From assembly GCF_964204645.1 (NCBI RefSeq), contig NW_027437453.1, positions 1 through 64,000 on the forward strand: a stretch of 64,000 nucleotides of DNA, in the 5' to 3' direction. Each line of letters begins with the position of its first letter. The first letter of the stretch is position 1. Under the pieces are notes generated by a model, which saw nothing but the letters and a program-made list of their open reading frames with translations, made no database searches and was not told the origin of the DNA. The translations under genes and the position numbers were made by a program. This document shows, one piece after another, positions 3,282 through 45,508 of this stretch. Origin of the DNA: Tubulanus polymorphus (Eukaryota > Animalia > Nemertea).

Positions 3282-3331
3282 TTGATCTAGAGATAAATGA
3301 AGCAGAAATACAATGGGGTTAGCCGCGGTAG

Positions 3332-20672: not shown

Positions 20673-20851
<179 letters not shown>

Positions 20852-22730
20852 AAATGTACAGTAATGCTTATGTTAGTTTTGAAGCCGGTTAAAATAAATA
20901 AATACAAAATATAAATTTGCTATTTAGATAGAAAGATGATCCGTATTCTGAAACTAGATCCGCGCCAGGCCCCGTTGGACTTTATATTGGATACAGTTTT
21001 GTGCATTGACCGTCGCATGGTTTTTATACATTTTATACATTATACATTTATACATTGGGTATGAAATATTAGTCCTAACAGGTAACATGAATAACATTTC
21101 TAAACCGTGAACGATGAATTCCCCAACGTGCTTTTTAAACGCATTTAGTAACAAGTTTGTTTCACTATAGCGGTAAAAATGTTAACAAATTGCATTAATC
21201 AATGTATCCTACTGAATTTCAACTGAATTCGGCGATTTGGTGATTCGGAGATGTTCAAACACCCGGTTACGTTCGTCGAGTCCGCCTTCTGGAGATAACG
21301 ACTTTTCTATAGACCACATGCCATAGGTTTATAGTGTGCATCTATTTTTTATAAAAGACTGTCTTTGAACTCGACTAGTTTAAGTTCAAGCTAATTTATT
21401 CAATGGAAAAGAACTCAAAACCTTGAAGGCCGATGAAGTAAGCACATAAGGAGAGCGCATGGCTATGTTTTTGTAGCAAGTGTTGTGCAAGTGACCCGAA
21501 GGCAGTATTAGATTCTAAATTTCCACGTGTTTAATCTGATATAATATTGATTATAGTTACATAACAACGGCTACGACGCGTGTCTCCTTCATTTCATATT
21601 TTCGATTATATCAAGTTGGAGTGTTGCATAAGTGACGGAATGAAATGAAATCTGAATGAATTAATTTTGTCCTAAACTTTTGAAACAGTTTTGACTACTC
21701 CAGAGAATGTTTGAATGTCCATGCTCTGAAGATAGGTTTTGTGATTCCCCGTAGTTACTTAACTATTCAGTTATGAATATAGTTGCGCACAAAAAACAAC
21801 CGTAATATAACCAGAGAGATGCACTATACTAAAGATTAAAGAAATAAAATCAGCCTTGTCGATGATAAAGATTTATGACGGTGATCCTCAGGCCGGGCGG
21901 ATTGAGAAAGGTCCGAGGGGGTCCGTATCCCCCTCCATAAATTGGAAGGTCCCTACAAACGTCTACTCCAAGAAATCCTAAGTGACCATTTTTAAATTAA
22001 GGTGAATTAGAACACAAACAGAAGTGCAAAATGATGAATATACGATGGTATTGTGATTGTGGTCGTGGTGTTGTGTATGTTACGATTATTATCATGGATT
22101 TCATTGTTCAACTACGTGGAAATCTTTCCATCACATTCTTCTCAAATTTTCAAAACGTTTCTATAGTCGAGTAGCCCCTAACGGTCGGATGTCTATGTAA
22201 TGTCGTTGTGCGTGTTGCATCGTCATTACAGTAACATTTAATATGGTTCCTTTTTACTTTCCCGGACTCCACCCCTACAAAAGTCCTAGATCCACCCCTG
22301 ATCCCGACATGTTTTATTTTCGATTGAGTCCAGAGTGGAACTTTTGCTGACGAGAGTGGGGGGGGGGGGGGGGGGCTCTTTCAAATCCAGCCAACCCTAG
22401 GCCTGCTGATAATATCGTCACATTGGTTAGGCAATAGACTTGGGCAGTGAGGATTGGAACTGGGGGTCAATGTTTCGGATATCTAAAAATTGTGGAGTTC
22501 ACCTAAGTATATAAATATCTTGCAGCTTTTATTACAATTGTTATATTCATATTTCTCAAGTGAGTTAAACCGTTTTAACAGTTTATCTGAAATTCAAAAC
22601 GTGCGCTGTTCATTTGAGAAACGTTCAGGATCCATCAGATACCACCAATATATAATTTGTGTTTCCTGTGACTAAAAGAAATCTAGTCCCAAAAGCGAAA
22701 GATGATTTAAATCTTTGTGACTGTCCATTT

Positions 22731-23187: not shown

Positions 23188-24087
23188 CATTTGAGAACTA
23201 AAACTATGAGATGTACTTTAATTAGCTCTTCTATACGTGACTGGACATTGTGTAAAAGCTTTTGATTAAACTCAGAGGCCTATATGATATGCGTGATCTG
23301 AAAACAATTTATCGCTTTTAAGGGTGTATGCGACAAATAAGGAAAATACAGTTAATTTCCCTGTTTTCGGCTTAAATTTGAAGTAGATGAAAACCTGTTT
23401 TCTTTGAATTGAAGCCACGGGAACCACTTAACCTCATTTTCAAGCCGGCTTAGAATAGGCGATGTTGGGTTATTATGTCATTGATTTGCACAGAACGGAC
23501 ACCAGTATAATCAAATTCCCATCCTCGATGGCGAGCGTTTCCAAAAACCCAGCAACAGTGAGTTCCGGGAACTCATTTTGACATGGAATGTCGGAATCCC
23601 AGCCTTCGATAATTTCCCGTCTTCCTAATGGCCCAATAAGGTCAAATACCGTGATTTACGGAGTTAACGCGGCATTAAACATTTTAAACCTGCCAGGGAC
23701 TCGAATTTAAATCAAGTAGAAAATAAAGAAAAACTCCCAAAAAACTATTCTATCTTATACATTACTATTGTTAAGTCCACTACATATAAACAAGTTGAAA
23801 CCTCATTAATCAGTAGGTTGTACACTATACATCTTTTTAAATATATTATAACAATCGAAGTTTTAGGTTCCAAAACCTGGAACAAAGTTCCGTAATTATG
23901 AAAGTCACAATTATTATAGATAAGTTACTTTATCAAATTCTGATGCTTGATAGAGTGTAAAACATATTTGCAGAGTGTAAGCGCATTTATTTTCCAACCT
24001 CCAATAAAATCCACGAGAAATAGTATTATACACTACAATGACTTCACTGCATGCGCAACGAATCAATAGGCAATACAAACCGTTGTG

Positions 24088-24550
24088 AGTAATAGGGATA
24101 ATAGGCTTTCAAGCCAAAGGTCGAACGGTCGAGCTCGTAAAAAATGAAAAACATAAAAATAATAACAATTTCTACTTGAATTACTCGCGAAACTCATAAA
24201 AATGAAAAATAAATTCTCACACGCTCGAATTTATTTTTCATTTTCATGAGTTTCACTCCTAATTCAAGTAGAAATTGTTATTATTTTTATGTTTTTCATT
24301 TTTACTCACCCGCCCGTTCAACCTTTAGCTTGAAAGCCTATTATCCCTATTACTCTTAAAATATTCATATATATATGAATAACATTTAAATCATTGAACT
24401 TCTAAAATCAATTTTAATAAAAAATATAGTATTAAAATGGAAGCAAATAAGTACTACTGCCCAACATGTAAGATAAATATAGATAAGTCTCAAAAAGCAA
24501 GACACAATAAAACTATAACACATTTAGAGAATAAATTGAAACTAGAATAT
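24088..24550 (+). repeat. Left TIR; contains a 267-bp hairpin (24088-24354) and the first 38 codons of pPolB
   Basis: Near-identical reverse complement of 41765-42228. Confidence 0.95.
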
Positions 24551-27500
24551 AAGGATGATATATTAGAAACTAAATTAGAAGAATTAAAGAATGAAAAAGA
24601 AACATACAAATGTGATACATGTAATCAATCATTCAGTGATAAAAGATATTATAAAGAACATTTAAAATCTATAAGTCATATTAGAAATAAGAATAATGAT
24701 ATTTTAGGTGAAGATTATTTTGATAATGATAACGATAAGAAACAGAAGACAATTAAAAGAATAAAAAATAAATTAAACAATAAAAGACCATACATGGAAG
24801 ATGTAAGAAAATATATTAATTCATTAGATAATAAAAAAGATATAGAGATAACCGAAGCATTTAAAAGTGATATTGGTCCAGCAGCTATCGAGTTTAAATT
24901 TCATAAAGGTAAAACATTAGAAGAAAATAAAAAACATTTAGAAAATATGAAAGAAATAATAAAAATAATTACGGATGTTGAATATCCTAAAATAAGTATA
25001 TCAGTTAAAGTAAAGTTTATAAAATCTGAAGATAAACCAATATATAATATAAATTCTCATTCACAACATATTATATCTAAACAACATATAGATGATAAAT
25101 TAAATAAATGTTATAATGAAATAAAAACTAAAATAGAAGAGAAATATTTTGAAGGATCTGGTTTAATATTTGATGAGATAATATTTATAACTTTACATGT
25201 TTATAACACAAAATATAATAAGTTAACTAAATCAAAACCAATTGATGAAAATAATTTATCATATTATAAAGATGATAGTATAAATGGAACAAGTTATATT
25301 AAATTACCATTTAAAACTAATGGTGTAATAAATATACAAAATTTTGATAATAAATGTTTTATATGGGCAATAATAAGTTGTTTACACCCAGTTGAAGATT
25401 ATAAACAACATAGTTTTAGATTAACTCATTATAAACAATTTGAAAATAATTATAAGATAGATAAATATCCTGTTAGAATTAAAAATATTCCAAAAATAGA
25501 AAGAGATAATAATCTTAAAATAAATGTATTTGATTTAATTAAATTACCAAATACAAAAGGAAATAATATTAAACATTATACATTAGAACCTTTATATCTA
25601 TCAAAAGATTATGATTCAAATAATGTTATAGATATACTATATTATGAAAATCATTACATGTGGATTAAACAAATAGATTTATTTTTTAGAACAGAAAGTG
25701 ATCACCATAATAAAATATATCTATGTAGAAAATGTTTACATAAATTGAGTAATGAAAGTATATTATTAAATCATAAACAACTATGTGATAATCATGATTA
25801 TTGTAAATTAGTTTTACCAAATGAAAAAGATAAAATATTAGAATTCAAAAAATATGATTACAAAAATAAAGTACCATTTGTAATATATGGAGATTTTGAA
25901 TCATTAAATAAAGAATTAACAGATAAAGATAGAAAAGAAATATATTATAAAAGAAAGAAATTAAATTCTAATGAAAATGATTTTTCAGATGAACCACCAA
26001 AAACAAATACAATTAAAAAGATTCATCAATCAGCTGCAGCTTTCGGGTTATATATTAAATCTGATTATCCAGAACTAATTGAAAGTGAATATTATAATTA
26101 TAGAAATGAAAATGTTATCAATCATTTTTGTGACTTATTAATTGAATATGAAATAAGATTTAGTAAATTATTGAATACAAATATAGAAATTATAATGACA
26201 GAAGAAGATAAAGAAGAATTTGCGTTTGCAGATAAATGTTATTATTGTGAAAAACTATTTAATTATAAAGATAAAAAAGTAAGAGACCATGATCATTTGA
26301 ATGGAAAGTTTAGAGGCGCTGCACATGAGAATTGTAACTTACAAGCTAAGAAAATTAACTTTGTACCAGTTATATTTCATAATCTATCAGGATATGATGC
26401 ACATTTATTTATCAAACAGCTATGTTATAAAATAGAAGAAATCAATAATGAAATAGAAATATTAAATTCAAATAGATCAAAAGATAAAATACCAACTTAT
26501 AAATTTAAAATGTTAGCTAAAACATCTGAGAATTATATATCATTCCAATTTGGTTGTCTAAGATTTATAGATTCATATAGATTTTTAAATAGTTCATTAG
26601 ATAACTTATCAAAATCATTAATTGATGATGAATTAAAGATATTAAAAGAATATTACCCAAATTATGATGATTTTAAATTAATGAGATATAAAGGTGCAAT
26701 TCCATATTCTTTCTATAAAAATCATAATGATTTTGAAATAACTGAATTATTGAAAGAACAATTCTATGATGAATTAAAAAATGAATATGTTAAAGATGAA
26801 GTTTATAATAGAACATTGAATATTTGGAATCATTTCAAAATAGAAAATCATGGGCAATTAGTAGATTTATATTTAAAATCAGATGTATTATTATTAACCG
26901 ATATATTCGAAAGGTTTAGAGATGTAAACCTAAAATATTTCAATATTGATCCTTGTCATTGTTATTCATCACCAGGATTAACTTGGGATTGTGGTTTAAA
27001 ATTTACAGATATAAAAATGGATTTGTTAACAAATATAGATCAATTACTATTATTTGAAAAATCTATAAGAGGAGGTGTTTCAGGTGTATTGGGTGATAGA
27101 TATTTCAATGTAAATGATAATCCTGGATATAAATTATTATACATAGATGCAAATAATCTTTATGGTTGGGCAATGATGGAACCACAACCTTATGGGATGT
27201 TTGAAATAACTGAAGTTTTACAAATTGATAAATTTGATTGGAAGAAAAGAATCCTAGATATTGCAGATGATTCAGATACTGGTTACTTCTTTGTTGTAGA
27301 TTTAGAATACCCTGAAAATATTAAATTCAAATCTAGAAATCTAGCATATTGTCCCGAACATAAAACTGTTAAACATGAAGAATTATCAAATTATCAAAAA
27401 AGAATTAAACCCGATAATCATATTCATACTGAAAAGTTAATGGTAACTCAAGAAGATAAATATAATTATGTAGTGCATTATAGAATGTTAAAGTTTTATT

Positions 27501-28471
27501 TGAGACAAGGAATGATATTTAAAAAAGTACATAGATATATTTCATTTAATCAATCTAAATGGTTAGAAAAATATATAGATTTTAATACTACACAGAGAAC
27601 TAAATCTAAAACTGATTTTGAGAAGGATTTTTTTAAATTGATGAATAATGCATTTTATGGAAAAACATGTGAAAATATTAGAAATAGAAGTGATATTGAG
27701 TTAGTTAGTAATGGTAAAAGGATAAAGCATTTACAATCGTATCCGAAATTCATAAGCAACAGAATATTTGATGAAAATTTAGCTGCAGTTAAAATAAGGA
27801 GAACTTCTATGAAGTTCAATAAACCAATCTATGTTGGTGCTACAGTTTTAGAATTATCAAAGTTATTAATGTATAAATTTTACTATAACATATTACAACC
27901 CCATTTTGGAGAAAAAAATATAGAAATATTATATTTTGATACAGATTCTTACATATTAAAGATAAAAAGTGATAATATAAGAGATGATTTAAAAATATTA
28001 AAACATCATTTTGATTTTAGCAATTATCCTGAAGATCATGAACTATTTAGCAATGATAATAAAAAGATTCCTGGTAAGTTTAAGGATGAATTAGGTGGTG
28101 AAGAAATGATAGAGTTCATAGGTATTAGATCTAAAATGTATTCATATAAAACTAAAGAACATGAAGCTAAAAAGTTAAAAGGAATAACCAAAAGCGTTGT
28201 TGAAAAGAATATTCATTTTAAAGATTACATCAATTGTATATTTAATGAAGAAGTTAGAAAACATAAAATGAAATGTTTAAGATCTGAAGATCATGAAATG
28301 TATATTGAAGAGATAGAGAAGATAAGTCTAAACCAATTTGATGATAAAAGATATATTTTAGATGATGGAATCCACACAGTCGCCTATGGTTGCAATTTAG
28401 ATGAATATATAAAATTAAAAAGAGAAGAAACAAAAGAAAATGAGATTATGAAAAGGATTCTAACATGTTAA
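24437..28471 (+). CDS. pPolB: Protein-primed family B DNA polymerase with N-terminal C2H2 fingers and an inserted endonuclease VII-like His-Me finger
   Basis: YGDFES, FHNLSGYD, YLKSDV, YIDANNLYG, KLMNNAFYGK, YFDTDS; CYYC..RDHDH..RG..H..CN. Confidence 0.97.
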   Translation: MEANKYYCPTCKINIDKSQKARHNKTITHLENKLKLEYKDDILETKLEELKNEKETYKCDTCNQSFSDKRYYKEHLKSISHIRNKNNDILGEDYFDNDNDKKQKTIKRIKNKLNNKRPYMEDVRKYINSLDNKKDIEITEAFKSDIGPAAIEFKFHKGKTLEENKKHLENMKEIIKIITDVEYPKISISVKVKFIKSEDKPIYNINSHSQHIISKQHIDDKLNKCYNEIKTKIEEKYFEGSGLIFDEIIFITLHVYNTKYNKLTKSKPIDENNLSYYKDDSINGTSYIKLPFKTNGVINIQNFDNKCFIWAIISCLHPVEDYKQHSFRLTHYKQFENNYKIDKYPVRIKNIPKIERDNNLKINVFDLIKLPNTKGNNIKHYTLEPLYLSKDYDSNNVIDILYYENHYMWIKQIDLFFRTESDHHNKIYLCRKCLHKLSNESILLNHKQLCDNHDYCKLVLPNEKDKILEFKKYDYKNKVPFVIYGDFESLNKELTDKDRKEIYYKRKKLNSNENDFSDEPPKTNTIKKIHQSAAAFGLYIKSDYPELIESEYYNYRNENVINHFCDLLIEYEIRFSKLLNTNIEIIMTEEDKEEFAFADKCYYCEKLFNYKDKKVRDHDHLNGKFRGAAHENCNLQAKKINFVPVIFHNLSGYDAHLFIKQLCYKIEEINNEIEILNSNRSKDKIPTYKFKMLAKTSENYISFQFGCLRFIDSYRFLNSSLDNLSKSLIDDELKILKEYYPNYDDFKLMRYKGAIPYSFYKNHNDFEITELLKEQFYDELKNEYVKDEVYNRTLNIWNHFKIENHGQLVDLYLKSDVLLLTDIFERFRDVNLKYFNIDPCHCYSSPGLTWDCGLKFTDIKMDLLTNIDQLLLFEKSIRGGVSGVLGDRYFNVNDNPGYKLLYIDANNLYGWAMMEPQPYGMFEITEVLQIDKFDWKKRILDIADDSDTGYFFVVDLEYPENIKFKSRNLAYCPEHKTVKHEELSNYQKRIKPDNHIHTEKLMVTQEDKYNYVVHYRMLKFYLRQGMIFKKVHRYISFNQSKWLEKYIDFNTTQRTKSKTDFEKDFFKLMNNAFYGKTCENIRNRSDIELVSNGKRIKHLQSYPKFISNRIFDENLAAVKIRRTSMKFNKPIYVGATVLELSKLLMYKFYYNILQPHFGEKNIEILYFDTDSYILKIKSDNIRDDLKILKHHFDFSNYPEDHELFSNDNKKIPGKFKDELGGEEMIEFIGIRSKMYSYKTKEHEAKKLKGITKSVVEKNIHFKDYINCIFNEEVRKHKMKCLRSEDHEMYIEEIEKISLNQFDDKRYILDDGIHTVAYGCNLDEYIKLKREETKENEIMKRILTC

Positions 28472-28499
28472 TCAATTTCAATAAAAATTTGTATAATAA

Positions 28500-28841
28500 A
28501 TGGAGAGTAAACAAGTACATAGTGAATTCTTAGATAGAATTAAAGATACTTCAAACGTCAAATCTGTAGATTATAAATTTAAAAAACTAACTGAGTTAAC
28601 AATTCACATGAAATATTTAATTACTAACATTGAAACAATTACTAATAAATATGGAGATAAATTAGTAATTCATTTAGAATATGAAGGATTAAAAGGAAAT
28701 ACACATAAATTCAGAACTTATTTACCAGATAGATTTCATAGATTATCAAGTGAAGATCTAGAAGAATTATGTTCTGGGTATTTCTATTTCATATACAAAG
28801 GTAAGAATGAAAAAGGGCACCATGAAATAGATTTCGAATAA
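28500..28841 (+). CDS. Hypothetical Polinton protein (113 aa; possibly beta-rich/OB-like)
   Basis: Intact ORF with TAAATG start, tightly packed after pPolB. Confidence 0.75.
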   Translation: MESKQVHSEFLDRIKDTSNVKSVDYKFKKLTELTIHMKYLITNIETITNKYGDKLVIHLEYEGLKGNTHKFRTYLPDRFHRLSSEDLEELCSGYFYFIYKGKNEKGHHEIDFE

Positions 28842-28858
28842 GAAAATATGTAAAATAA

Positions 28859-29617
28859 ATGGCGGAATTAAAAGAATACAGAATATTTGTTGATTCTAGA
28901 AGGCTTACAAATTATAAATCTCATAATTTACTAGTACAATTAGATAGAGAATTCAAGAATTGTGTTGATTTAAAATTGATAAATATAAGTCTATGTAATT
29001 CTTTTTATAATATATCGAATAAAACTATTGAACATAGAGCCTTTTTAATTTTTAATAAGAATAAAAATGAATGGGCTTATATATATTTAAAACCGGGGTT
29101 ATATAATTTAGATACATTAGCACAAGAAATTAATAGAAAAGCCTGGCACAAGTCAGGTAATAATTCCGGGTTTAATATTAGATTTTTAAAAAGTGAGAGT
29201 ACTGACAAAATAAAGATAAGGTTGTCTGATAGTGAAAAACATGCGTTTATGGTAAAAAAACCTATAGCTAAACTGTTAAGAATTCCTCCAGATAAATCTT
29301 TTACAAATGTTGATGCTACACCAAACTTGATACCTTACACACACTTTTATATTTATTACAATTTAATCGATCCTACAAAAACATTCGAAGCAACTAAAGA
29401 TATAACTTGTAATTCTGGTTTACTAAACATTTTACCATTGAAGAATGTTAAAGAATTTGGAACACAAATAAATTATAATTTAACAGAATGTGATTTCAAA
29501 CCATGCATTCCTCGTTTTAATAATTTTAGATTAGAAATTAGAAATCATAATGGATACTTAATTGATTTAAATAATTTCCCTGTAATTTATGAATTAGTTA
29601 TAAGATGTAAAGAGTAA
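28859..29617 (+). CDS. Minor capsid protein (penton, single jelly roll)
   Basis: IFVDSR, NSFYNI, PGLYNLDTL and C-terminal IRNHNGYLIDLNN.PV.YEL, typical of Polinton/virophage pentons. Confidence 0.75.
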   Translation: MAELKEYRIFVDSRRLTNYKSHNLLVQLDREFKNCVDLKLINISLCNSFYNISNKTIEHRAFLIFNKNKNEWAYIYLKPGLYNLDTLAQEINRKAWHKSGNNSGFNIRFLKSESTDKIKIRLSDSEKHAFMVKKPIAKLLRIPPDKSFTNVDATPNLIPYTHFYIYYNLIDPTKTFEATKDITCNSGLLNILPLKNVKEFGTQINYNLTECDFKPCIPRFNNFRLEIRNHNGYLIDLNNFPVIYELVIRCKE

Positions 29618-29633
29618 TTTTTTCATTATATAA

Positions 29634-29975
29634 ATGAATATAACTGTTGGACCGAGTATATGTTTTGGGTTTGATTTTAAACATGGTAAAGAAATGAGAA
29701 TTAAACTAAATGATGTAATTACTGATATAAAAAGTAAATCATTTAACAATGCATCAATGATTGATAAAGAAAAGTATAATATAGAAAAAGTAATTGATTT
29801 AATTAAATCACCTTTAGAATATTATGAATTAAATGAAGATGGAATTATTGATGATATTAAAAACATATTATCCAAAATATATGATAATCATAAAACTAGT
29901 AATGAAATAAATGTTGAAATAATCATCACTAAGTTAACTAAATATTTTGAAGATAGTAATTTTTTTGATAAATAA
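29634..29975 (+). CDS. Hypothetical Polinton protein (113 aa)
   Basis: Intact ORF preceded by T6-N7-TAAATG. Confidence 0.7.
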   Translation: MNITVGPSICFGFDFKHGKEMRIKLNDVITDIKSKSFNNASMIDKEKYNIEKVIDLIKSPLEYYELNEDGIIDDIKNILSKIYDNHKTSNEINVEIIITKLTKYFEDSNFFDK

Positions 29976-30197
29976 ATGAGTGATAATAAGTGGATAATAA
30001 CTGGATTATATAATGGCGCATTACTATCAGTTGGAACTGTTGGTTATTCAATGGTATTAAAAAAAGTATTCAAAATGGGAAGTGTTAATGTTGATAGATT
30101 TGATATAAATGATATTTTGAAATTAACGTTAGCAGTTACTTTATCTAATTTAACTATTGATTATTTGGAAAAACAAAAATATATTCCTCCCATATAA
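29976..30197 (+). CDS. Small hydrophobic/membrane protein (73 aa)
   Basis: Two hydrophobic segments; TAAATG start. Confidence 0.75.
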   Translation: MSDNKWIITGLYNGALLSVGTVGYSMVLKKVFKMGSVNVDRFDINDILKLTLAVTLSNLTIDYLEKQKYIPPI

Positions 30198-30221
30198 ATG
30201 TATAATTTTTTTACTAAATAA

Positions 30222-30644
30222 ATGGCTTCTGCAATTATAACTATTATAGGATCGGCAATTGTTAACGCTTTAGCATTTACTGGTGGTGGTTATTTATTTA
30301 AACATATTGATAAAAATAGTTCATTAGGAGAACAAAGAAGACATAATTTAGCGTTAGAGAAATACAATAAAGCTGCAGAAGAATATAGAGAAAAGAGACA
30401 AAACTATATGGATTACATCAATAAAGAATTATATGATCAGAAGATTTCAAACAGAGATTTTCAATCAGTTGATGATGCAATGAGTTTATATAACACAGTA
30501 ACAAATAAAGAAAAATTACATCTATACAAACCTAAATTATCAGATTATTATACCCCAAGTAAAGAACAACAGAAATATGAAATAATATGGATTTTAGGTG
30601 GAACAGTTATTGTTATATTTGTTGCTTATAAGTTTACTAATTAG
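30222..30644 (+). CDS. Membrane protein (140 aa) with a hydrophobic Gly/Ala-rich N-terminus, coiled coil and C-terminal TM
   Basis: MASAIITIIGSAIVNALAFTGGG; IIWILGGTVIVIFVAY. Confidence 0.8.
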   Translation: MASAIITIIGSAIVNALAFTGGGYLFKHIDKNSSLGEQRRHNLALEKYNKAAEEYREKRQNYMDYINKELYDQKISNRDFQSVDDAMSLYNTVTNKEKLHLYKPKLSDYYTPSKEQQKYEIIWILGGTVIVIFVAYKFTN

Positions 30645-30663
30645 TAATTTTTATTCTAAATAA

Positions 30664-31098
30664 ATGGAAGATAAAGTTGATAATATTGATATTATTCCTC
30701 ATGATATAAATAAAACTAAATTAAAAACATATTTAGAAAAACAAATATTAGAATTTGAAAGTGACTTAAAGATAAAAAAGAAAAAATATTTAAAAAGTAA
30801 AATTATATATTATTTGATTATAAGTGGTTCGGTTACAATTAGTTCTGTAATAACATTTCTAGCAATATTCAGCCCATTAACACCTTTAGCTATATCAATT
30901 GGTGTATTAGGATTAAGTTCAAGTGTTTTAACTGGTATAAGTTCAAAATTAAATATAAAAAGTAATAAAGAAAAAATTAAAACTAATATAAATGAAATTA
31001 ATAAATTAAAGAACACACTAGATTATATAATAAGTTTAAATGGTCATATAACAGTTGAAGAACAAGATAAATTATTAAAAGAATTAATAAATTATTAA
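30664..31098 (+). CDS. Two-TM membrane protein (144 aa) with flanking coiled coils
   Basis: IIYYLIISGSVTISSVITFLAIF and LAISIGVLGLSSSVLTGI. Confidence 0.8.
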   Translation: MEDKVDNIDIIPHDINKTKLKTYLEKQILEFESDLKIKKKKYLKSKIIYYLIISGSVTISSVITFLAIFSPLTPLAISIGVLGLSSSVLTGISSKLNIKSNKEKIKTNINEINKLKNTLDYIISLNGHITVEEQDKLLKELINY

Positions 31099-31114
31099 TT
31101 TTTTAATTATATAA

Positions 31115-32416
31115 ATGGGGTTTCCAAAAGCTTTCCAATATAATAAATCAATTAAATATAATATTCCGGCAATAGATTTTAAGAAAAATATTACATATAA
31201 AAATGTAGTTTTAGATTCATTAACTAATTTAGAAATTTATGTTAATGAATCACAGTTTTTTATTTCTAAAATGGAAAATATATTTAATACATATGAAGTT
31301 ACTTTTACTCGAGATGAATATCATATATATAAAGTAAAATCTAATATGAAATATTGGCAGAATCAATTAAATTTTGCTGTTTATTGTGCAACAACAGGAT
31401 GTGGAATTAGTTGGAATGATCATTTAAATAACTTAGATAAAAATTTGAAGTATTCTGATTTAAAATTAATTCACACAATATTTAGATTTCACACATATTT
31501 TCAAATCAGAATAATATTAAATGAATTAGAATGTCCTTTACCCGGGTCTAAATATTTTAAAGAATTGGATAATAATATTAATATATCCAAGTTTTATAAA
31601 ATATGTAATGAATTTAATATAAATATTAATTCCGATTTTAGAGCGCATGGTAAATTGCAAGGTGTTGGTGAAGAGTATGAAATAAAAAGAATTGATTATA
31701 TGCATAGAATTTCAGCTTATCATAATTATAAAATTGATAATAATAATGGTTGGGTTAATTTCATTTTAGAAAATGGTGAAGGTTTTACAAAATCAGGTAT
31801 ATAAAGAATAAATCAATCTATTAGAATTTATTTGATATGTATTTTAGGCGCTCAAGTTGAAACAAGATCCCCAATAATTGGAAATGATAACACTTCATTC
31901 GATGCGCAGAAACAATTTAAAGTTTTATTTGAAGATTCAATTCATAATGATAAAAATAGATCGATTCCAGAAAACATTATAAGATATCAAAATTATTTAG
32001 ATAAATCTCATGTAAGACTAAATTATTGTATAGGCCCTAATCTATTAATTATTTCTAATGATTTAGTATTAAAGATGGGAAATATAATTGGTTATAATAA
32101 TCTAATTAAAACTGCAACAATAAATAATTCATTTGGATTAAATGATATAAATAAAAAGATTATTACTGCTCCAAAATTAATGGAAGGTGAAAAAAATAAA
32201 AAACATATTCAATCAACTGAAACTAAAACTAATAATATTAAATTGGTTAATGATTCCAAAATAAAAGATTACAATACATCAGAAAATAATAGAACTGATA
32301 AAATTCAACATGATATAATTAAACTAAATGATGATAATAAATCCCATGAAAATACTAAATTAGCTATAACTTGTATAGGAATTGTAATCGGAGGAATATT
32401 ATATTTTAAATTTTAA
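31115..32416 (+). pseudogene. Polinton protein with C-terminal TM, broken by one in-frame stop (31802-31804)
   Basis: ORFs 31115..31804 and 31832..32416 share a frame (GFTKSGI*RINQSIR); YWQNQLNFAVYCATTGCGIS motif; terminal LAITCIGIVIGGILYF. Confidence 0.8.
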
Positions 32417-32432
32417 TTTTTTTATTATGTAA

Positions 32433-34139
32433 ATGGATGTAGAAGGTGGAGAAGATTATGAAATGGGAGAAATGGGAAATAATAAGGAAGGATATATTGA
32501 TGATGATTATAATGATACAGAAACTAATATTGATAATAATGATGAATCAGCATATAATACTAATTTAGGTGAAGATAATGATTATGATGATGATGATGGA
32601 ATTAATACCGAAGTACGTGAAAAATTAAATAAATATTTAGAAGCTCCTGAAAGGGGTAGAATTTCAACTAGAAGAGAAAGAAAAGAATTTATGGAACAAT
32701 TAGTAAAACAACAAGAAAAATATCCTGATGAACATTTGGAATTATTTAAAATGAAATCTAGAGTAACAGATACAATTGTTAACGAATTATTACCATCAGT
32801 TGTAATAGATGAAATTGATACTGAAGATGTTGTAGAACAAATTTTTAAAGATGACCCATATTTCACAAATAATTTAGAATTTAAAAATGATGCATGGTAT
32901 TATAATCTTGATTTAAATAGGAATATTGTAACAATTCAATTATCTAAAATAGGTCAAGAAAATATTTTTGAACCTGAAATGCGAGCAACATCTACAATTG
33001 AAAATTCAAAAGGTGGTAGAGAATTTCTCAAAATTATATGGAATGCACTCGATAGAATAAATGAAGAAGAACCAATTCCTAAAATTAATATAAACAAATA
33101 TTCACCATTTAAAAATCCAAATCCTACTGATTTTGATCCAGAAATGGAAGAGAATAGAAATCGATTAGATAGATTAAGATCTTCAACACCCGAAACATCG
33201 AGAAGAGACACTCAACAAATTGATAATGATTCAAGTAAATTACAATTAGAAAAACAAATTGATAGATTAAGAGATTCAGAAGAACTGATGAATAGTATAT
33301 CAGATACATCTGGTTCTGAAACTGGAATAAATCGACTGCAATATTTACTAGAAAAAGGATTTCTTAATTTAACTGATGAAGAATTAGAAGCATTTCCTGA
33401 ACAAATACGTAGAGAAATTAAAGGTATACAAGTATCAGCTGATGAAATTGCTAATATTAAGATGAGATTTTCTAAAATAACCATGTTAGAAAAAGAATTA
33501 GTTAATGTAGATGAAGAATTAAAACAATTAGAATTAAATAGAAATCATCAAGTAGTTTATGAAGCTGATTTTGAAAGCAGAAAGTTAGCTTTAGTAAAAG
33601 AAATAGATGATTTAGAATATAACATAAAATTACAAAAAGAAGAAAGAGATATATTATTAAAATCATATGATCTTAATCATATTAAAAAATTAAAAGTTAT
33701 TTTTAAAGATTTGTTGATTAAACCAGATTCTGAAATATCATTAAAAGATAGAATAAAATTATTATTTAAATTAGAAGGAATAACAATTCTTTCAATTCTA
33801 ACATCTGTAACTATGGTATTTACAACAATAGGTTTAGCTATATCAAATGCTTTGAAATCTACTCCTACTCCCACTCCAAATAAACCGGATAAACCTCCAG
33901 GCAATAATTCTATACAAGATAAAGTTAAAGATGGTTTAAAGAAATTAGCAAAATATTTATGGGAACTATCTAAAAAATCTGCTGCAGCTTTACCAGGAGT
34001 TATTGCTTCAATTGTTGGTTTTATATTGAAATCTGCAGGTAATATTCTTAACTTTGCTGCTGAACATATTATTTTATTTTTAATTACAGTTGTTAGTGCT
34101 ATTATTTTTGGTTTAGTAAACATGATTAAAAATAAATAA
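32433..34139 (+). CDS. 568-aa protein with acidic N-terminus, long coiled coil and C-terminal membrane helices
   Basis: Heptad-rich region, TM segment, PTPTPNKPDKPP linker, amphipathic helix, terminal TM. Confidence 0.85.
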   Translation: MDVEGGEDYEMGEMGNNKEGYIDDDYNDTETNIDNNDESAYNTNLGEDNDYDDDDGINTEVREKLNKYLEAPERGRISTRRERKEFMEQLVKQQEKYPDEHLELFKMKSRVTDTIVNELLPSVVIDEIDTEDVVEQIFKDDPYFTNNLEFKNDAWYYNLDLNRNIVTIQLSKIGQENIFEPEMRATSTIENSKGGREFLKIIWNALDRINEEEPIPKININKYSPFKNPNPTDFDPEMEENRNRLDRLRSSTPETSRRDTQQIDNDSSKLQLEKQIDRLRDSEELMNSISDTSGSETGINRLQYLLEKGFLNLTDEELEAFPEQIRREIKGIQVSADEIANIKMRFSKITMLEKELVNVDEELKQLELNRNHQVVYEADFESRKLALVKEIDDLEYNIKLQKEERDILLKSYDLNHIKKLKVIFKDLLIKPDSEISLKDRIKLLFKLEGITILSILTSVTMVFTTIGLAISNALKSTPTPTPNKPDKPPGNNSIQDKVKDGLKKLAKYLWELSKKSAAALPGVIASIVGFILKSAGNILNFAAEHIILFLITVVSAIIFGLVNMIKNK

Positions 34140-34159
34140 TTAATTTTTTTGTTAAATAA

Positions 34160-35407
34160 ATGAGTGGGAGTTATATCAATCCTTCTAAGAATCATAGAAT
34201 ATCTAATGCTATTAAAGCAGAAAGATCACATCATATAATTACTCATAACCCTTCAAATATTAATCCCGATGAAACTTTATATGTTAGAATTCCTAGATTA
34301 ACACAAAATACTTTTTATGTTCCAAACAGTATTTATTTATCAGCTGATATAAAAGTAATCGGTAATAATAATAATTATGTCGTTGATAATGTTGGAAGAT
34401 ATTTGATTAAAAAGTTAACAATAAAGATTGGTCCAGAAACAGTTTTCTCATTAGATGATTATAATTTATTTATGCACTATTAAGATTTATGGTTAACTAA
34501 AGAAAATAGAAATAATATGATATTTCAAGGCATCCAATCAGAAAACCAAAATAAATTAAGATCAGAAGCTAATAGCGCAATATTAACAAATGATGTAGAT
34601 AAATTGATAAAAAGTATATATGGAAACAAATATAAAATTCCATTAGACTTTGAATTGATAAATAATAATGCACCTTTATATAAATACGCAATTCAAGAAG
34701 ATATTATATTTGAGATAACATTTGCTCCCGTAAATGAAATTGTAATATCTAGCGTTAATAAAGATATGAGTTATAAATTATCGAATATATGTTTAGAATA
34801 TGATACAGTAACTGATGAAAATATTTCAAGTATAATTCAAACTAAATACAATCAAGGATTTTCATTATTATATGATTATATTGATAAATTTAAAACCGTA
34901 ACTATTAATGCAAATGATGAAATAATTAATGAGAATATTAACTTCCCAAGAAGATCTATTAACGGTATATTAATATTTTTTACTATTGGAACGTATACTA
35001 ATGGCGCAATAAATGTTGACAATTATTATAATCCTGAAATAACAAAAGTAGAAATAACTATCGAAGGAATAGCAAATAAAATATTTTGTCAAGGAATGAG
35101 AATGATAGATCAATGGGTAGAAATTAAAAAACATTTTATGAATGAAAAAGTAAAATCATTTGAAAATTGTAACATTAATCAAATTGATTATTATACCGGT
35201 AATAAATATGCATTATGGTTAGATTTTAGAACAACTGAAGATAATTCATTACATGGTTCTGGGAAAAAACTACAAAATACAAAAGATGGAATACAATTAT
35301 TCATGACAAAGAAAAAGGGAATTAAAAATTTTAAAATGCACATTTATATTATATCTGACGCGCAATTAAATATTGTAAATTCACAATTAGATAGTGTTAT
35401 GTATTAG
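34160..35407 (+). pseudogene. Major capsid protein (double jelly roll) with a premature stop at 34481-34483
   Basis: ORFs 34160..34483 and 34517..35407 are in frame (HY*DLWLTK); beta-rich pattern, IKKLTIKIG, ALWLDF; ~415 aa. Confidence 0.8.
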
Positions 35408-35439
35408 AATTTTAACTTTAATAAAAATATATATAATAA

Positions 35440-36507
35440 ATGGAAGGAGGTAAAGTATATGAAAGAATCAAAGCTGATAAAGAAATCAATGATGATTTGT
35501 ATTATGTAATACCTTATAAAAGAATAAATGAATATATTGGAACATTTTTATTAAATGAATTAAATCAATACAAAGAATATTTAATTGAACGTAATAATAA
35601 TATTGATATAAAAATAGAAGATAATATTGAAACAAAAATAGAAGATAATATTGAAACAAAAATAGATAATAATATTGAAACAAAAATAGAAGATAATGTT
35701 ATACCTTCTACATCGAATGATGATAAGATTGAAACAAAAATAGAACATAATATTGAACCTAAAATAGAAAAATCAAATGTTCAACCAAAAGATAACATTA
35801 GATGTATGTATTGTGAAGAAGATTTTGATAATTACAATGATTATTTATTACACATCAAAAAAGATGAACATATTTTACAATTAGTAAAAACATATGCCAA
35901 TATATATAAAGATAAATGTAAAGAGGATCAGAATTATTGTGCCTTCTGTAATGAATGTATAACAAAGGCTAATTGGGCAAAACATTATAAATTAAAAACA
36001 AAAGGTGGAAATGATTCAGCCCATGCAATACAAGTATTTAAATCTTGGTGTGAAAAATGTAAAGAATATGTAATATATGATAAACAATTGAATCATAAAT
36101 ACTCAATTAAACATATTGGTACAGATAACGTAATAGAAAATCCAACAGTTATAAATCCAAAATTTAATAATATGAATATATTAGATTATCGGTGGTATAG
36201 AAAAACATTTATAGATTATTTCTTGAGTAATGATATAGTTACCATATTGAAAAAGTTAGATAACTTTAAACCAAATGTAACTTATGCAATGAACTTATTT
36301 GAACTTAAATATGATGATTTTAGAGAATTTTTAAATAAAAATCCATCTAAAACTGAAATCGAAAATTATATTCCAAAAATATTTTCAAGAAAAACATTCA
36401 ATAAATATAAACTTGGGAATTATTCAGGACCTATATCAAAGATAATGCAAAGGGATATATATTTAGAATACAATAAGCTTAAAGAAAAATATGAAAATGA
36501 AAATTAA
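35440..36507 (+). CDS. Zinc-finger protein (355 aa) with an internal (IEDNIETK)n repeat
   Basis: CMYC..H..H, CAFC..H, CEKC..H..H. Confidence 0.8.
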   Translation: MEGGKVYERIKADKEINDDLYYVIPYKRINEYIGTFLLNELNQYKEYLIERNNNIDIKIEDNIETKIEDNIETKIDNNIETKIEDNVIPSTSNDDKIETKIEHNIEPKIEKSNVQPKDNIRCMYCEEDFDNYNDYLLHIKKDEHILQLVKTYANIYKDKCKEDQNYCAFCNECITKANWAKHYKLKTKGGNDSAHAIQVFKSWCEKCKEYVIYDKQLNHKYSIKHIGTDNVIENPTVINPKFNNMNILDYRWYRKTFIDYFLSNDIVTILKKLDNFKPNVTYAMNLFELKYDDFREFLNKNPSKTEIENYIPKIFSRKTFNKYKLGNYSGPISKIMQRDIYLEYNKLKEKYENEN

Positions 36508-36511
36508 AAAG

Positions 36512-36889
36512 ATTATAGAATTCACTGTATATTGATGGATGAATGGATGAGTTGGAAGAGTTGGATGAATTGGATGAGTGGAAGAGTGGATGAGTATAAT
36601 AATATATATATTTTACTTTTTAACACATAAATTGGAAGAATAGTATGAGTATAAATATAATATTTTTATTCTTTATTAAATTTAACACAATATATATATA
36701 TTATTAAAATAATATTTAAATATAGTATAAAATTGATAAAATAACTTCAAATCAAACTCTTACTGTTTTAAAAATAAAAAACATATGTAAATTATATATT
36801 ATTACACTCATCCATTCATCCACTCTTCCAATTCATCCAATTCATCCAATTCATCCACTCATCCATCAATATACAGTGAATTCTATAAT
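36512..36889. repeat. Inverted repeat (~90-bp arms built of GGATGA(A/G)T microrepeats) between convergent gene blocks
   Basis: ATTATAGAATTCACTGTATATTGATGGATGA...TCATCCATCAATATACAGTGAATTCTATAAT. Confidence 0.9.
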
Positions 36890-36905
36890 ATTTTGAATTA
36901 GGATT

Positions 36906-37517
36906 TTATTTTATAAATTTATATTCATAGGGAAATTGTAATCTCATTAATAATTTTGAACCTTTATTATTTTTTAATTTATTCATATATTCATCATGTA
37001 ATTCAGTAGGTATAATTTGATTTTCTTCCAATGATTGTTGCATAGATTTTCTATCTTTGTTGTAGAATAAAACTAGAAATCTTATATTCTCTCTAAAATC
37101 TTTCACAATTGAATTATATTTTTGATTTAAAACCCATGTTGTTATCCCAAAATGTCTACCAGAGAAAGCTAAATAACATAACTCACTTTCTCTAATTTTA
37201 GAATCATGTAAATTTGCGCAATCATCGATAATAAATAATGTATTTGATCCTTTATAAATATCTAATGCAATTTTTATACAATTATCTAAATTTTCTTTTA
37301 CTGTTTTAGGGTCTAATATAATAAACTTTTTTATCTTAACTATATCTCTATTATATGTTTTATTCATTTCATATGTAGGACAGAATAATATTATATTATC
37401 AAAATGATTTTTATAAATAGTTTCTAACAAGTCTAATATGAAATGTGTTTTACCACAATTTGTAACTCCAATAACTAACATATTATGTGGTTCAAATATA
37501 AATAAATCTTTATTCAT
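36906..37517 (-). CDS. A32-like (FtsK/HerA) DNA packaging ATPase
   Basis: Walker A GVTNCGKT, Walker B FIIDD, GRH motif, Q sensor. Confidence 0.92.
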   Translation of the reverse strand: MNKDLFIFEPHNMLVIGVTNCGKTHFILDLLETIYKNHFDNIILFCPTYEMNKTYNRDIVKIKKFIILDPKTVKENLDNCIKIALDIYKGSNTLFIIDDCANLHDSKIRESELCYLAFSGRHFGITTWVLNQKYNSIVKDFRENIRFLVLFYNKDRKSMQQSLEENQIIPTELHDEYMNKLKNNKGSKLLMRLQFPYEYKFIK

Positions 37518-38599
37518 TTATTCTTTTAATTTTACTAGATAAAATCCATTCATTAAATTTATCATCATATCCTTTATATTTCACCAAAGAATACTTTTTT
37601 CCTTTAAGAGTTTTTGTTTTCAATACTTTTTCTATTTTGTATTCTATTTCATCTGGATTTGGTACTAATGATAATTCTTGTTCATAAAAATAACCTAATA
37701 TTTCTTCATCTTTTAAATCAAACAATTTATAAACAAATGGTTTAGTTAATATTATCTTTTTAATTTTAAATATTTCTTCAGTAAAATTAGGGGTATAACC
37801 TTTATAAAATGTTTTTCGATATTTAGAAATTCTAACATGTTGTCCTATTTTTAATTTAGGTTCTCCAAAATCGTGTGTAACAAATGCGCCATAAAAATTA
37901 TTCCAAACTATTTCTGAATTTTCTTCTTTTCTAGCTTGTATAGGTTTTAATATTTATAGAACTATGTTTAGAATTATTATAACCTTTAACTAAATCATCT
38001 AACACATCGATATATTTATATGTTTCATTAGCGGTGAAATATTTCCACATTCTAGTTTTCAATGTTTTATTAAATCTTTCTATAACAAATGCTTTTTTAT
38101 CTGAATGTGTTGAAAAATATTCTACATCGTTATCAGTTAATAGTTTTTTAAAATGTTTGTTATAAAATTCCTTACCTTCATCAAATTGTATCTTATCTGG
38201 AATAGCTTCTTTAAATATTAATTTGAAAGAATTTGTAACTTCTATACCAGTTTTATTTTTAATCGGGATACTCCATGCGTATCTACTGAATATGTCTATA
38301 ACATTTAGTATCCAAAAATATCCTTTGTTATATTTTTCTAAGTTTTTCATATCAATTAAATCAGCTTGCCATTGTTGGTCAATATATGAAACCATTACTT
38401 TTCTTGTTAAATATTTTTTATCCATCTTTTTATGAATTTGATATGTGGGTTGATTTTGTAACCATGATTTTAATTCACTATATTTTATTTTTTCTTTATC
38501 AGATTTAATTTTATCCCATAATTCCGAAACACTTGAATATGATACTTCACTTTCTGGGTTATAATATAAATCTCTTAAATATTGTTCTTTTTTCATCAT
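37510..38599 (-). pseudogene. RVE (retroviral-type) integrase with C-terminal chromodomain; one frameshift near 37945-37955
   Basis: WQADLIDM, FDEGKEF, IERFNKTLK; the alternative frame continues KPIQA...VRISKY..F.KGYTPNFTEEIF into the chromodomain (LVKYKGYDDKFNEWI). Confidence 0.92.
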
Positions 38600-38602
38600 A
38601 TT

Positions 38603-38998
38603 TTAATCCATTAATAATATTTTAGATTTATTTTCATTTGATTTATGATTTGACTTATTTTCTGGTATAATAGGTTTATCATCATTGGAATCATCTTTAT
38701 CATCAGATTTGAATTTTGATTTATATATTACACCGGATAATATAATAATTGTGATTAACCCAATTGTAATATATAAGTAATTATTTCTTCCACTATTAGA
38801 AGAATTAGATGGATTATTATTTGAATCAATACCACCGTGTGGGTGCTGTACGGCACCATCAGATAATTTCTGTGATTCATTTATATCAGTTAATTTCTTT
38901 TTCTTAGCTTTTTTTAATTCTGATGATCTTTTACCTAATTCTCTTGCCCATTTAATTTGTTTCTCGGATCTAGCCTTTTTCTTAACTCCATCACTCAT
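38603..38998 (-). CDS. 131-aa protein with a basic N-terminus and one TM
   Basis: KKKARSEKQIKWARELGKRS; YLYITIGLITIIILSGVIY. Confidence 0.75.
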   Translation of the reverse strand: MSDGVKKKARSEKQIKWARELGKRSSELKKAKKKKLTDINESQKLSDGAVQHPHGGIDSNNNPSNSSNSGRNNYLYITIGLITIIILSGVIYKSKFKSDDKDDSNDDKPIIPENKSNHKSNENKSKILLMD

Positions 38999-39593
38999 TT
39001 ATTTTAGTTAATTTTTGTTCTGATTCATTTTCTGTTTCGATGTTTTGTTGTAGTACATCTGTTTCGTTCTTACCTGATTTATATTCCATATTCTTGATGT
39101 TCGAAAATGTTATGACGCCAGTAGAAATTAATGTCATAACCGATCCTAATTGGAATGAAGCATAACCGACCCATTTTTGTAATTCAGTCATAACTAAGTA
39201 GTCATTTTTCAAATCATTATATAATTTATTTTCATCATCAATTGGTATTAACTGGTTACATAACTTAGAATAACATTTGACAATACCATCTGAAATAGAA
39301 TCATTTATTCTAGCTAATCTTGACTCTTCATAAATCTTAAAATATTTTATTACTTTTTCTTTGTTCATATTATCTAATTCTTGAAAAGTTATTGTTTTAC
39401 CAATAAACTCTTTAGTTTTTCCACTCGCAATCAATAGTTCTAGATGATGTTTACAATATAAGTAGTATTCATAATCTATATTGTTATTAACTTGAATAGA
39501 ATTAGTTACAACTGTATCTTTATTATCACTTATACCCAAATCATCTAATGTTTTTTCAATATCAATACTATTCTTATTAGATTTCTTTGACAT
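38991..39593 (-). CDS. Hypothetical Polinton protein (200 aa) with a hydrophobic C-terminal segment
   Basis: Intact ORF preceded by T6-N9-TAAATG. Confidence 0.75.
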   Translation of the reverse strand: MSKKSNKNSIDIEKTLDDLGISDNKDTVVTNSIQVNNNIDYEYYLYCKHHLELLIASGKTKEFIGKTITFQELDNMNKEKVIKYFKIYEESRLARINDSISDGIVKCYSKLCNQLIPIDDENKLYNDLKNDYLVMTELQKWVGYASFQLGSVMTLISTGVITFSNIKNMEYKSGKNETDVLQQNIETENESEQKLTKINE

Positions 39594-39896
39594 TTATATT
39601 AGAGGAAAAAAGCAAAAAAAAATATTTTAAGTATTCTTCAAATGATACTAGATAGTTAAAGTTAAAGAACTCTAGTATTGACTACTGATACTAGCTATTT
39701 GAATTTAAAGAATTTCTATTTGAATCTATTCAAAATATAAAGTATTCTTTTTTGAAAAGAAAATATTAAAAATATAATAGAATTCACAAGCTAGTTGAAG
39801 TTATTGTTTTTTAAATATTTTTTATTTAAAATCTATTTGATATCTCACTACTTTTGTTTATCTATTAGGAGCAGTAGTTATAACTGTCCAGATAAG

Positions 39897-40571
39897 TCAT
39901 TTCGGATCCTTGATATCAAATTCCTCAACGTATTGTTCATTCTGTGGGTTACTATTCCACCAATCAATAAATTTCCTTGCTTTATTCAACTGTTCCAAAT
40001 ATAATTGTAAATCTAGTTTATTAGATTTGATTTGATTTTCTTTCTTTTCTAAAGGCCTTAGATTCTTCCAATTCCAAATAAGTTTTTTATTGTATTCATC
40101 ATTCATGTTAAATTTAGATATTGGTAACACGTGATCAATATGGTAATAATCCCCATAATTATCTATATTCATTTTATCATCGAATTGATATATTATCCAT
40201 GATTTGAGAAATTCATCTGAACAACCCAATAAATTAGATAGTGTTTCTGAATGTGTTTCTTTGTTGAATAATTGTGTTAATCTAGACCTTAAGCATTGTT
40301 TCAATCTAAAATTAAGATCTGTTTGATATCTTTCTCTCATATATTCTGTCATATAATCATTATAATGTTCTCTATTATCTTCTCGATATTGTTTGGTGTA
40401 TAGTTTAGTACAAGTTTTACAACAATATTGAAAACCATCTTTGCTAATCTTACGCTTACTAAATTCTGTTAATGATTTATCTAATTCACATTTAGAACAC
40501 TTCTTGTAGTATATGTTTATAACACCAGTGTTATTTGTAATATTGATAATTTGTGGTTCTTCTGGTTCCAT
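39897..40571 (-). CDS. HNH endonuclease with an N-terminal Cys4 zinc finger (type common in large DNA viruses)
   Basis: CSKC...CKTC; YHIDHVLP...NLRPL...EN. Confidence 0.85.
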   Translation of the reverse strand: MEPEEPQIINITNNTGVINIYYKKCSKCELDKSLTEFSKRKISKDGFQYCCKTCTKLYTKQYREDNREHYNDYMTEYMRERYQTDLNFRLKQCLRSRLTQLFNKETHSETLSNLLGCSDEFLKSWIIYQFDDKMNIDNYGDYYHIDHVLPISKFNMNDEYNKKLIWNWKNLRPLEKKENQIKSNKLDLQLYLEQLNKARKFIDWWNSNPQNEQYVEEFDIKDPK

Positions 40572-41686: not shown

Positions 41687-41878
41687 TTATTCATTATTTG
41701 GATCAGTGTTCCATAATTCAATAAATTTCTTTCCTTTTGTTAACTGTTCTGAATATAACTGTAAATATTCTAGTTTCAATTTATTCTCTAAATGTGTTAT
41801 AGTTTTATTGTGTCTTGCTTTTTGAGACTTATCTATATTTATCTTACATGTTGGGCAGTAGTACTTATTTGCTTCCAT
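41687..41878 (-). pseudogene. Chimeric ORF: pPolB N-terminal zinc finger (from the TIR) fused to the tail of an HNH paralog
   Basis: First 38 aa identical to pPolB; LQLYSEQLTKGKKFIELWNTDPNNE resembles LQLYLEQLNKARKFIDWWNSNPQNE. Confidence 0.75.
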
Positions 41879-45200: not shown

Positions 45201-45508
45201 GCTCTTTCTTCGAGACCATGCATTTGACCGCTGTAAAGACTTTCTTTGTAGGCCTATACTAGAGCATTTTATTTATAATTCCGTAACATTAGGACATAAA
45301 GCTATATAGACCGATAGCGACCAGGCCATTCCGTCTACCCGATAATACCTATTGCACATGGACACTTAAACGAACTTCAATAATACACGCACTATACATC
45401 ACTGCTGGATATTAAGAACACTTAAAAGTCAGTGTATACATTGAACATTCTCAGATTCGTGATTATTTGCTACTTATGTCCTTTCTAGCTATTACATGGG
45501 CATATACA

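Follow-up and report, generated by a model that had tools for sequence, protein, structure and literature searches.

Polinton ends in a nemertean genome are a real, recurrent and polar variant of a known terminal-palindrome design

The window, that is, the whole stretch of 64,000 nucleotides of Tubulanus polymorphus DNA analysed here, contains a Polinton of 18,141 bp (24088-42228), and a 6-bp target-site duplication, GTTGTG, flanks the whole element. The element is AT-rich, with a GC content of about 0.22 versus 0.36 around it, and encodes the proteins that characterize Polinton/Mavericks: a pPolB with TP and vOTU, an rve integrase, a packaging ATPase and a DJR major capsid protein. It also has the long TIRs, the 6-bp target duplication and the 5'-AG terminus of this group, the right end with one substitution. 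The two TIR copies (463 and 464 bp) are unlike at two places, one substitution at the penultimate base and one extra base on the right. The parts of the element are as follows.

24082-24087, forward strand: target-site duplication GTTGTG, left copy, from end comparison
24088-24550, forward strand: left TIR, 463 bp, taking in the first 114 nt of pPolB
24437-28471, forward strand: pPolB, 1344 aa, with zinc fingers, a TP-like domain (about aa 144-261), vOTU, an exonuclease with an endonuclease VII-like insert (aa 588-636) and polymerase
34160-35407, forward strand: DJR major capsid protein gene, divided into two ORFs by an in-frame stop; assigned from its atlas neighbours and from homologues in related elements
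36494-36907: internal imperfect palindrome, 414 bp, z -16.8, separate from the terminal palindromes
36906-37517, reverse strand: A32-like packaging ATPase (Pox_A32, E 5e-12)
37543-38599, reverse strand: rve integrase (PF00665, E 2.3e-9), the gene broken by a frame change near 37,940
39897-40571, reverse strand: HNH-like ORF, lineage-specific, a weak match (E 0.056)
41765-42228, reverse strand: right TIR, 464 bp, from end comparison
42229-42234, forward strand: target-site duplication GTTGTG, right copy, from end comparison

At the right end, a 63-aa ORF with a pPolB-like start (41687-41878) is present, as the TIR holds the first 114 nt of pPolB (24437-24550). The internal palindrome at 36494-36907 lies where two convergent gene blocks meet and overlaps the stop codons of both; in two related loci, L019 and L017, convergent junctions likewise contain intergenic palindromes. 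A short direct repeat occupies 40714-40891, in the non-coding part of the Polinton. No maturation protease was matched by Pfam in the ORFs of the element (best tblastn E 0.37, with the protease of one relative), and an HUH (Rep/NS1) nickase had no Pfam match in its 17 ORFs of at least 100 aa, several ORFs being without family. Elsewhere in the window, where BEL/Pao retrotransposons are present, we noticed a second BEL/Pao element (52043-57217), a dispersed repeat in three places (44714-47289, 57547-59272 and 23310-23649), a 24-bp tandem array (2610-2984) and a TA microsatellite (20678-20855).

For the TP region, modelling from one sequence gave low confidence (pLDDT 41), and a model based on an alignment was used instead. 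In this N-terminal model of pPolB (pLDDT 83), a TP fold resembles the little finger of Pol eta (Z 8.6, rmsd 2.7, 103 residues) and is followed by vOTU (Z 6.8), with Ser241 sitting between helix 2 and strand 4. Ser241 of the TP-like domain and Cys307 and His406 of vOTU are invariant in 77 of 77 sequences. Because the TP fold is present and these residues are invariant, protein priming has likely been retained, as judged from sequence and model. A little-finger-like TP with vOTU has been described for pPolB in the available text of a recent preprint (bioRxiv 10.1101/2024.03.18.585575), and the present protein matches that description.

The outer 267 bp of the 463-bp TIR form an imperfect palindrome that is flush with the terminus and adjoins the target duplication. 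The structures that concern the element ends are listed below.

24088-24354: left terminal imperfect palindrome (outer arm 24088-24216, apex 24217-24226, inner arm 24227-24354)
24129-24138: outer side of bubble 1, opposite about 24304-24313; the 3'-terminal strand has tandem G.A in a TGAG/CGAG context
24184-24188: bubble 2, outer side, partner 24255-24259; G.G and tandem G.A on the 3'-terminal strand
24216-24227, reverse strand: apex motif, CGA-GC-GT-GT-GAG on the 3'-terminal strand; predicted tandem sheared G.A and 2-bp mini-stem
41961-42228: right terminal imperfect palindrome, same isomer as the left
3163-3282, reverse strand: partial, diverged hairpin copy with outer arm and apex but without the terminal 28 nt; apex descriptor (see below) kept, mini-stem changed

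The preliminary description of this DNA had placed an imperfect hairpin of about 267 bp with CTC-containing bubbles at each Polinton end, and folding of both ends bears this out. The sequence 24088-24354 folds as a single hairpin of -101.5 kcal/mol (z -24.6), a value that none of 200 shuffles matched; its arms measure 129 and 128 nt and pair with 12 mismatches, leaving one base unpaired. Its reverse complement at 41961-42228, from which it differs by the substitution at the penultimate base and the extra base, also folds as a hairpin (z -28.3). The terminal decamer, said to be present four times, is exact in three copies, the fourth copy (at the right outer end) carrying the substitution. The terminal 27 bp have an exact inner copy within the palindrome, and in the predicted fold the 3'-OH of the 3'-terminal strand falls exactly at the base of the stem. 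The CTC of the bubbles mirrors a GAG. On the 3'-terminal strand, tandem G.A occurs in both bubbles and at the apex, twice in the window hairpin in a Y-GA-R context, which favours sheared G.A pairing. Sheared pairing would also be expected at the apex motif (24216-24227) from general knowledge of DNA structure. Rfam gave no match. The partial copy at 3163-3282 lies just upstream of a BEL/Pao element (ORFs 3544-4616).

Raw reads came from one Illumina run (X6) of another study carrying the same species label, about 12 in 100 of which was read; reads were placed on the inner arm and interior at 98% likeness, with 446 reads in the main placement. Seventy raw reads (46, 13 and 11) cross the apex with a change of strand, and the palindrome is therefore real DNA and no assembly artefact. 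The Polinton family is multi-copy and variable in this run. Outer-arm alleles at 24320 and 24327, the positions nearest the inner end, are absent from the complete variant table at a depth of about 67-79, where variants are reported from 3 reads upwards. Nor does depth drop across the inner end (211 just inside vs 200 just outside). Given these two observations, few if any integrated copies have flop ends or exist as solo hairpins, so far as the reads tell. Two sets of 31 reads that carry outer-arm letters continue into unlike sequence, and no joint between outer arm and interior appears among the groups of loose ends listed, which leave aside 25 groups of fewer than 21 reads each and from which the 98% filter could clip such reads. 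A further 47 reads represent other subfamilies, which diverge right up to the inner copy of the terminal motif yet keep the motif itself.

Relatives were sought with an alignment of 33 pPolB sequences, which led to 170 loci (22, 80 and 68), the contigs of five loci being read further; every relative was reached either by pPolB homology or through its position next to such an element in a record. An imperfect palindrome of 61-174 nt begins at the element end in ten further Polinton families, giving a range of 61-267 nt with the window included.

G002:C67: 19.4-kb element, 159-bp palindrome at both ends, same isomer
G002:C9: 15.1-kb element, 174-bp hairpins at both ends, same isomer, duplication TAGGAA, other pPolB class
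G002:C50, a second end in G002:C9, L053, L046, L048, L058 and L124: single ends, 73-137 nt
G001 subfamily 1: 61 nt, pairing of the terminal bases incomplete, target duplication not seen

Most of the fetched loci show no element end, and the family counts do not give a prevalence; short-read contigs presumably tend to break at hairpins. A palindrome scan of shuffled loci and phage control loci gave no matches. Hairpin status is scattered on the pPolB tree, with at least three changes on a quick tree of 39 polymerase cores. Five ends that start with an AGTAG motif (L005, L017, L072, L079 and L166) lack a terminal palindrome, a count that leaves out L019, L009 and G004:C2, whose termini are unclear. 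Among 30 ends fetched from G001, 2 are truncated, 8, which belong to multi-copy subfamilies, are without inner arm, and all 20 that have both arms are of one isomer. Because the AGTAG ends and some G001 subfamilies are without terminal palindrome or inner arm, a panhandle alone can suffice. In collections of viral contigs, single-protein scans (pPolB, integrase and second pPolB class) found no match and pattern scans for terminal motif and apex found chance matches only, without stems; a phage collection gave no pPolB match.

Several arrangements were seen in passing among these loci. In G002:C9 (L430, 169-465), the ends of two different Polinton families, both with terminal hairpins, stand head to head 8 bp apart. 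The G001 family (L315, L394-L423) is about 24 kb long and has TGT-type ends, with no target duplication seen; its pPolB is split at the same places in many copies, likely by introns. In some elements that have no terminal palindrome, hairpins are found in a subterminal position, 80-250 nt inward of the end (L072 250-415, L079 121-192 and the G004:C2 ends).

The palindrome is thus an integral and conserved part of the Polinton end: the hairpin belongs to the Polinton, as first described, and it lies flush with the terminus and recurs in ten other families. That it could be an unrelated MITE is contradicted by a duplication that flanks the whole element, by a read depth that does not fall at the inner end and by the terminal palindromes of the ten other families. 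The same evenness of depth (211 inside, 200 outside) speaks against the suggestion that the hairpin moves alone as a mini-element. Flip and flop isomers, also proposed, were not encountered in integrated copies, to which our data refer: no flop alleles occur at a depth of about 67-79, both ends are of the same isomer in the window, G002:C67 and G002:C9, and the 20 two-armed ends of G001 agree.

In four related families (G002:C67, C9, C50 and L053), 94.9% of 178 cells pair in a structure that was taken from the same sequences, and 22 of 48 pairs have changed on both sides, a degree of co-variation reached in none of 500 shuffles, slid controls being 34-59% paired. The two arms are 89-95% alike within a family and 49-77% between families (three families). 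Such double-sided changes can arise by fold-back copying without selection. The mismatches, however, are polar, and a neutral palindrome is strand-symmetric, so neutral fold-back copying cannot explain their distribution. On the 5'-terminal strand we counted 28 C-type against 3 G-type mismatches in seven families (sites within a family are not independent, and L058, whose arms align poorly, was left out); the 3'-terminal strand therefore carries G.T, G.A and G.G, and it folds more stably than the other strand in 10 of 11 families. At the apex, 8 of 11 families conform to the descriptor CGA-xy-loop-x'y'-GAG on their 3'-terminal strand; its 2-bp mini-stem co-varies, and the loop is often GNA. 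None of the 11 has the descriptor on the opposite strand, and its background is 6.5e-5 per position. This descriptor was drawn from the window, G002:C67, L053 and L046, and was then met in L058, G002:C50, both G002:C9 hairpins and the partial copy at 3163-3282; the hairpins of L048, L124 and G001 lack it. Taken together, the co-varying arms and conserved apex support the view that the hairpin is maintained, as read from sequence comparison. Two placements of the descriptor depart from this pattern: in L085, where the nuclease insert is degenerate, the opposite strand carries six copies close to the start (1-450), and in L082 one copy lies inside the element, in a weak stem (about 5005).

The preliminary description had named two candidate resolvases, the endonuclease VII-like domain of pPolB and the HNH nuclease. 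The insert of the window pPolB keeps its D-H and N residues; a search of solved structures with its sequence gave no meaningful match. Of the 93 relatives that were scored, 86 have an intact active-site pattern, among them the hairpin-less L017 and L166; the insert region is present in all of 113 sequences, with the full pattern in 102 and the other 11 diverged. A presence/absence link between insert and hairpin was rejected as an artefact of the regular expression, the insert region being present throughout. What is left is a weak link between absence of a hairpin and decay of the active site: among six hairpin-less or doubtful ends, two are clearly degenerate, two have His for Asp and two are intact, whereas the pattern is intact in all 6 scorable hairpin-bearing relatives of the window's pPolB clade. 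The two degenerate cases, L079 and L019, have as tree neighbours L108 and L046, which bear hairpins and keep the residues, a contrast that is suggestive only. The HNH-like ORF is common to L023 alone among the loci searched. These distributions lend no support to a dedicated resolvase: the insert is general to the clade and intact also in relatives with hairpin-less ends, and the HNH ORF is shared with a single locus. A second pPolB class, encoded by the 15.1-kb element of G002:C9 (L430, 11485-15321), has 24% identity to the window pPolB and matches PF03175; it contains what we take to be a VSR-like motif, without Pfam match. At both ends of this element, the 68-bp stem of the terminal hairpin contains one mismatch, which on the 3'-terminal strand is a G.T.

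How the single strand of a Polinton, excised or displaced, becomes a duplex with correct ends has been the subject of a model since 2006, of which we know of no direct test. We consider it slightly better than an even bet that the 3'-terminal strand folds to rebuild a duplex terminal origin, where the element's own TP-primed pPolB starts the second strand. This explanation supposes that a full-length single strand exists and folds, that TP-pPolB loads on the fold and that it copies the outer arm. The single strand would arise by strand displacement or by excision from the chromosome, and once freed would end in the order inner arm, apex, outer arm. In the fold, the terminal 27 nt would be fully paired to their inner copy and the 3' end would come to lie at the start of the unique sequence, the local fold being a substitute for a long-range panhandle between ends 18 kb apart. 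TP-pPolB would then load on the fold, initiate opposite the true 3' end and copy the outer arm; a single isomer would be kept because initiation takes place at the true 3' end. Simple terminal resolution of a closed hairpin would instead invert the end at each round, as is established for AAV-type ends. The paired 3'-OH might self-prime too. If the stem were nicked at its base, with the pPolB insert as candidate nuclease, and TP-primed synthesis filled in the terminal 267 nt, the outcome would be the same single isomer.

A broader version, which we put forward tentatively and regard as rather unlikely, is that many Polintons use a hybrid route, in which a single-strand telomere with a tandem-G.A apex would be read by TP-pPolB, would self-prime and would be nicked by a built-in mismatch-type nuclease (endonuclease VII-like or VSR-like), TP-primed filling then restoring the fixed isomer. 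If true, this route would account for the unexplained nuclease inserts of pPolB and would show, in a living system, a stage between protein-primed ends and the telomeric hairpins of large DNA viruses.

True hairpin telomeres are, in our estimate, unlikely. Here the 3' fold-back would itself prime, the ends of the free genome would be covalently closed, concatemer junctions would form and the pPolB insert would resolve them, the bubbles forcing a one-sided cut and hence one isomer. The 3'-OH placed exactly at the stem base would suit this scheme, as would the nuclease pattern intact in the window and in all 6 scorable hairpin-bearing clade relatives, its degeneration in L079 and L019 beside the hairpin-bearing L108 and L046, and the second hairpin-ended pPolB class, with its presumed VSR-like motif and one G.T in the 68-bp stem. 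Some parvovirus ends also occur in one form only, according to the available text of PMC8242256. However, no flop alleles and, among the read groups listed, no joints of outer arm to interior were found, the TP and vOTU residues are invariant, and the insert is intact in 86 of 93 relatives, hairpin-less L017 and L166 among them; besides, the HNH ORF is not common to the relatives and no HUH nickase was matched among the ORFs scanned. Flip/flop ends of the poxvirus type are unsupported. The end structure is real, recurrent and polar; a telomere of the poxvirus type is not demonstrated.

It is less probable still that the fold is a recognition or protection signal apart from priming, which would shield the 3' end from nucleases or mark the end for packaging or for the integrase. 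The strand-specific stability of the fold would be in keeping with such a role, and precedents exist in what is available of the cited sources, where mismatches of the vaccinia telomere serve virion maturation and not DNA synthesis (PMC8956199) and sheared G.A loops resist single-strand nucleases (PMC4513846; PMC5449611). Yet a signal of this kind has no need for an exact inner copy of the terminus, and 19-28 perfect terminal pairs are found in the window, G002:C67, L124 and G002:C9; the other subfamilies in the reads, too, diverge beside the inner terminal motif but keep it. A palindrome without function, left by ends that were copied by fold-back again and again or by the capture of a MITE, would fit the scattered distribution, the loss in active-looking subfamilies and the variable length (61-267 nt), but we hold it to be very improbable in view of the polar mismatches (28 vs 3) where a neutral palindrome is strand-symmetric, of an apex descriptor that stays on one strand while stems turn over, and of a hairpin that has no duplication of its own and whose inner end continues into the interior in reads.

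Folding of the 3'-terminal strand as an origin for TP-primed pPolB remains our preferred reading. The idea of hairpin ends operating beside protein priming survives in part: a role in end replication is likely, given the co-varying arms, the conserved apex, the flush position and the recurrence in other families. Weighing against the preferred reading are the five AGTAG ends and the G001 subfamilies that do without terminal palindrome or inner arm, the three of 11 hairpins without descriptor, its aberrant placements in L085 and L082, the scattered hairpin status on the tree and the fact that double-sided changes need no selection. The strand-specific end fold provides a defined oligonucleotide substrate for assays of TP priming, self-priming and nicking by the pPolB insert. 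Our results also suggest that short-read assemblies, which break at such ends, may have hidden a common feature.

In size, TIR, 6-bp duplication, pPolB with TP, vOTU and nuclease insert, integrase, ATPase and capsid, the element resembles Polinton/Mavericks with HNH- or VSR-containing pPolB (bioRxiv 10.1101/2023.08.22.554363; 10.1101/2024.03.18.585575). The word 'hairpin' is in the available text of neither preprint, and 'palindrom' is also absent from that of the former, on nematodes. Hairpin ends of pPolB Polintons are likewise not described in the available text of PMC11296320 and of bioRxiv 10.1101/2023.08.22.554363, 10.64898/2026.10.13.758929 and 10.1101/2022.07.28.501842. Literature searches turned up no pPolB Polinton with terminal hairpins; palindromic ends may be mentioned by Kapitonov and Jurka (2006), Starrett (2021), Repbase or preprint supplements.

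The preliminary description had treated imperfect terminal hairpins as foreign to the Polinton-like group, a view that is out of date since a 2026 preprint, in its available text, reported TIR palindromes and proposed hairpin priming for Halocafeteria virophages (subtypes 1, 2, 5 and 6) and PLV subtype 4 (bioRxiv 10.64898/2026.07.28.741278). As in those elements, the palindrome described here lies in the TIR beside the target duplication and is accompanied by an rve integrase. It is longer, with 267 nt (61-174 in relatives) versus 52 nt in the virophage example, and whereas the Halocafeteria-type palindromes are mostly found in elements without pPolB, a full pPolB with intact TP and a single isomer occur here, together with a strand-specific G.A motif of which the available text of that preprint makes no mention. 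Terminal palindromes of protist virophages are thus already known; their occurrence in pPolB Polintons and the strand-specific G.A motif did not turn up in our literature searches.

As far as the available text of each source goes, the ends share with parvovirus hairpins an imperfect hairpin flush with the 3' end, bubbles and, at some parvovirus ends, a single form, but rolling-hairpin replication of parvoviruses needs an HUH nickase and a host polymerase (PMC8242256), whereas the Polinton has TP-pPolB, an integrase and a DJR capsid. Poxvirus telomeres are likewise AT-rich imperfect terminal hairpins, with conserved mismatches, but are covalently closed and occur as two isomers (PMC8956199), in contrast to the open, full palindromes of one isomer seen here in the chromosome. 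By analogy, the palindromic end would most likely work like a Streptomyces telomere. There, TP priming takes place on a folded 3' strand with sheared G.A closures, often with GNA loops (PMC4513846; PMC5449611, in their available text). Like those ends, the Polinton ends are probably TP-primed, and in both the fold of the 3' strand pairs the first bases with an internal copy, in silico only in our case. Streptomyces has several short palindromes, an internal origin and Tap/Tpg, whereas the Polinton has one long stem and a TP fused to pPolB, and homology is not claimed. The Polinton ends described here are a real, recurrent and polar variant of the terminal-palindrome design, linked by that design, though not by demonstrated homology, to the telomeres of Streptomyces, parvoviruses and poxviruses.
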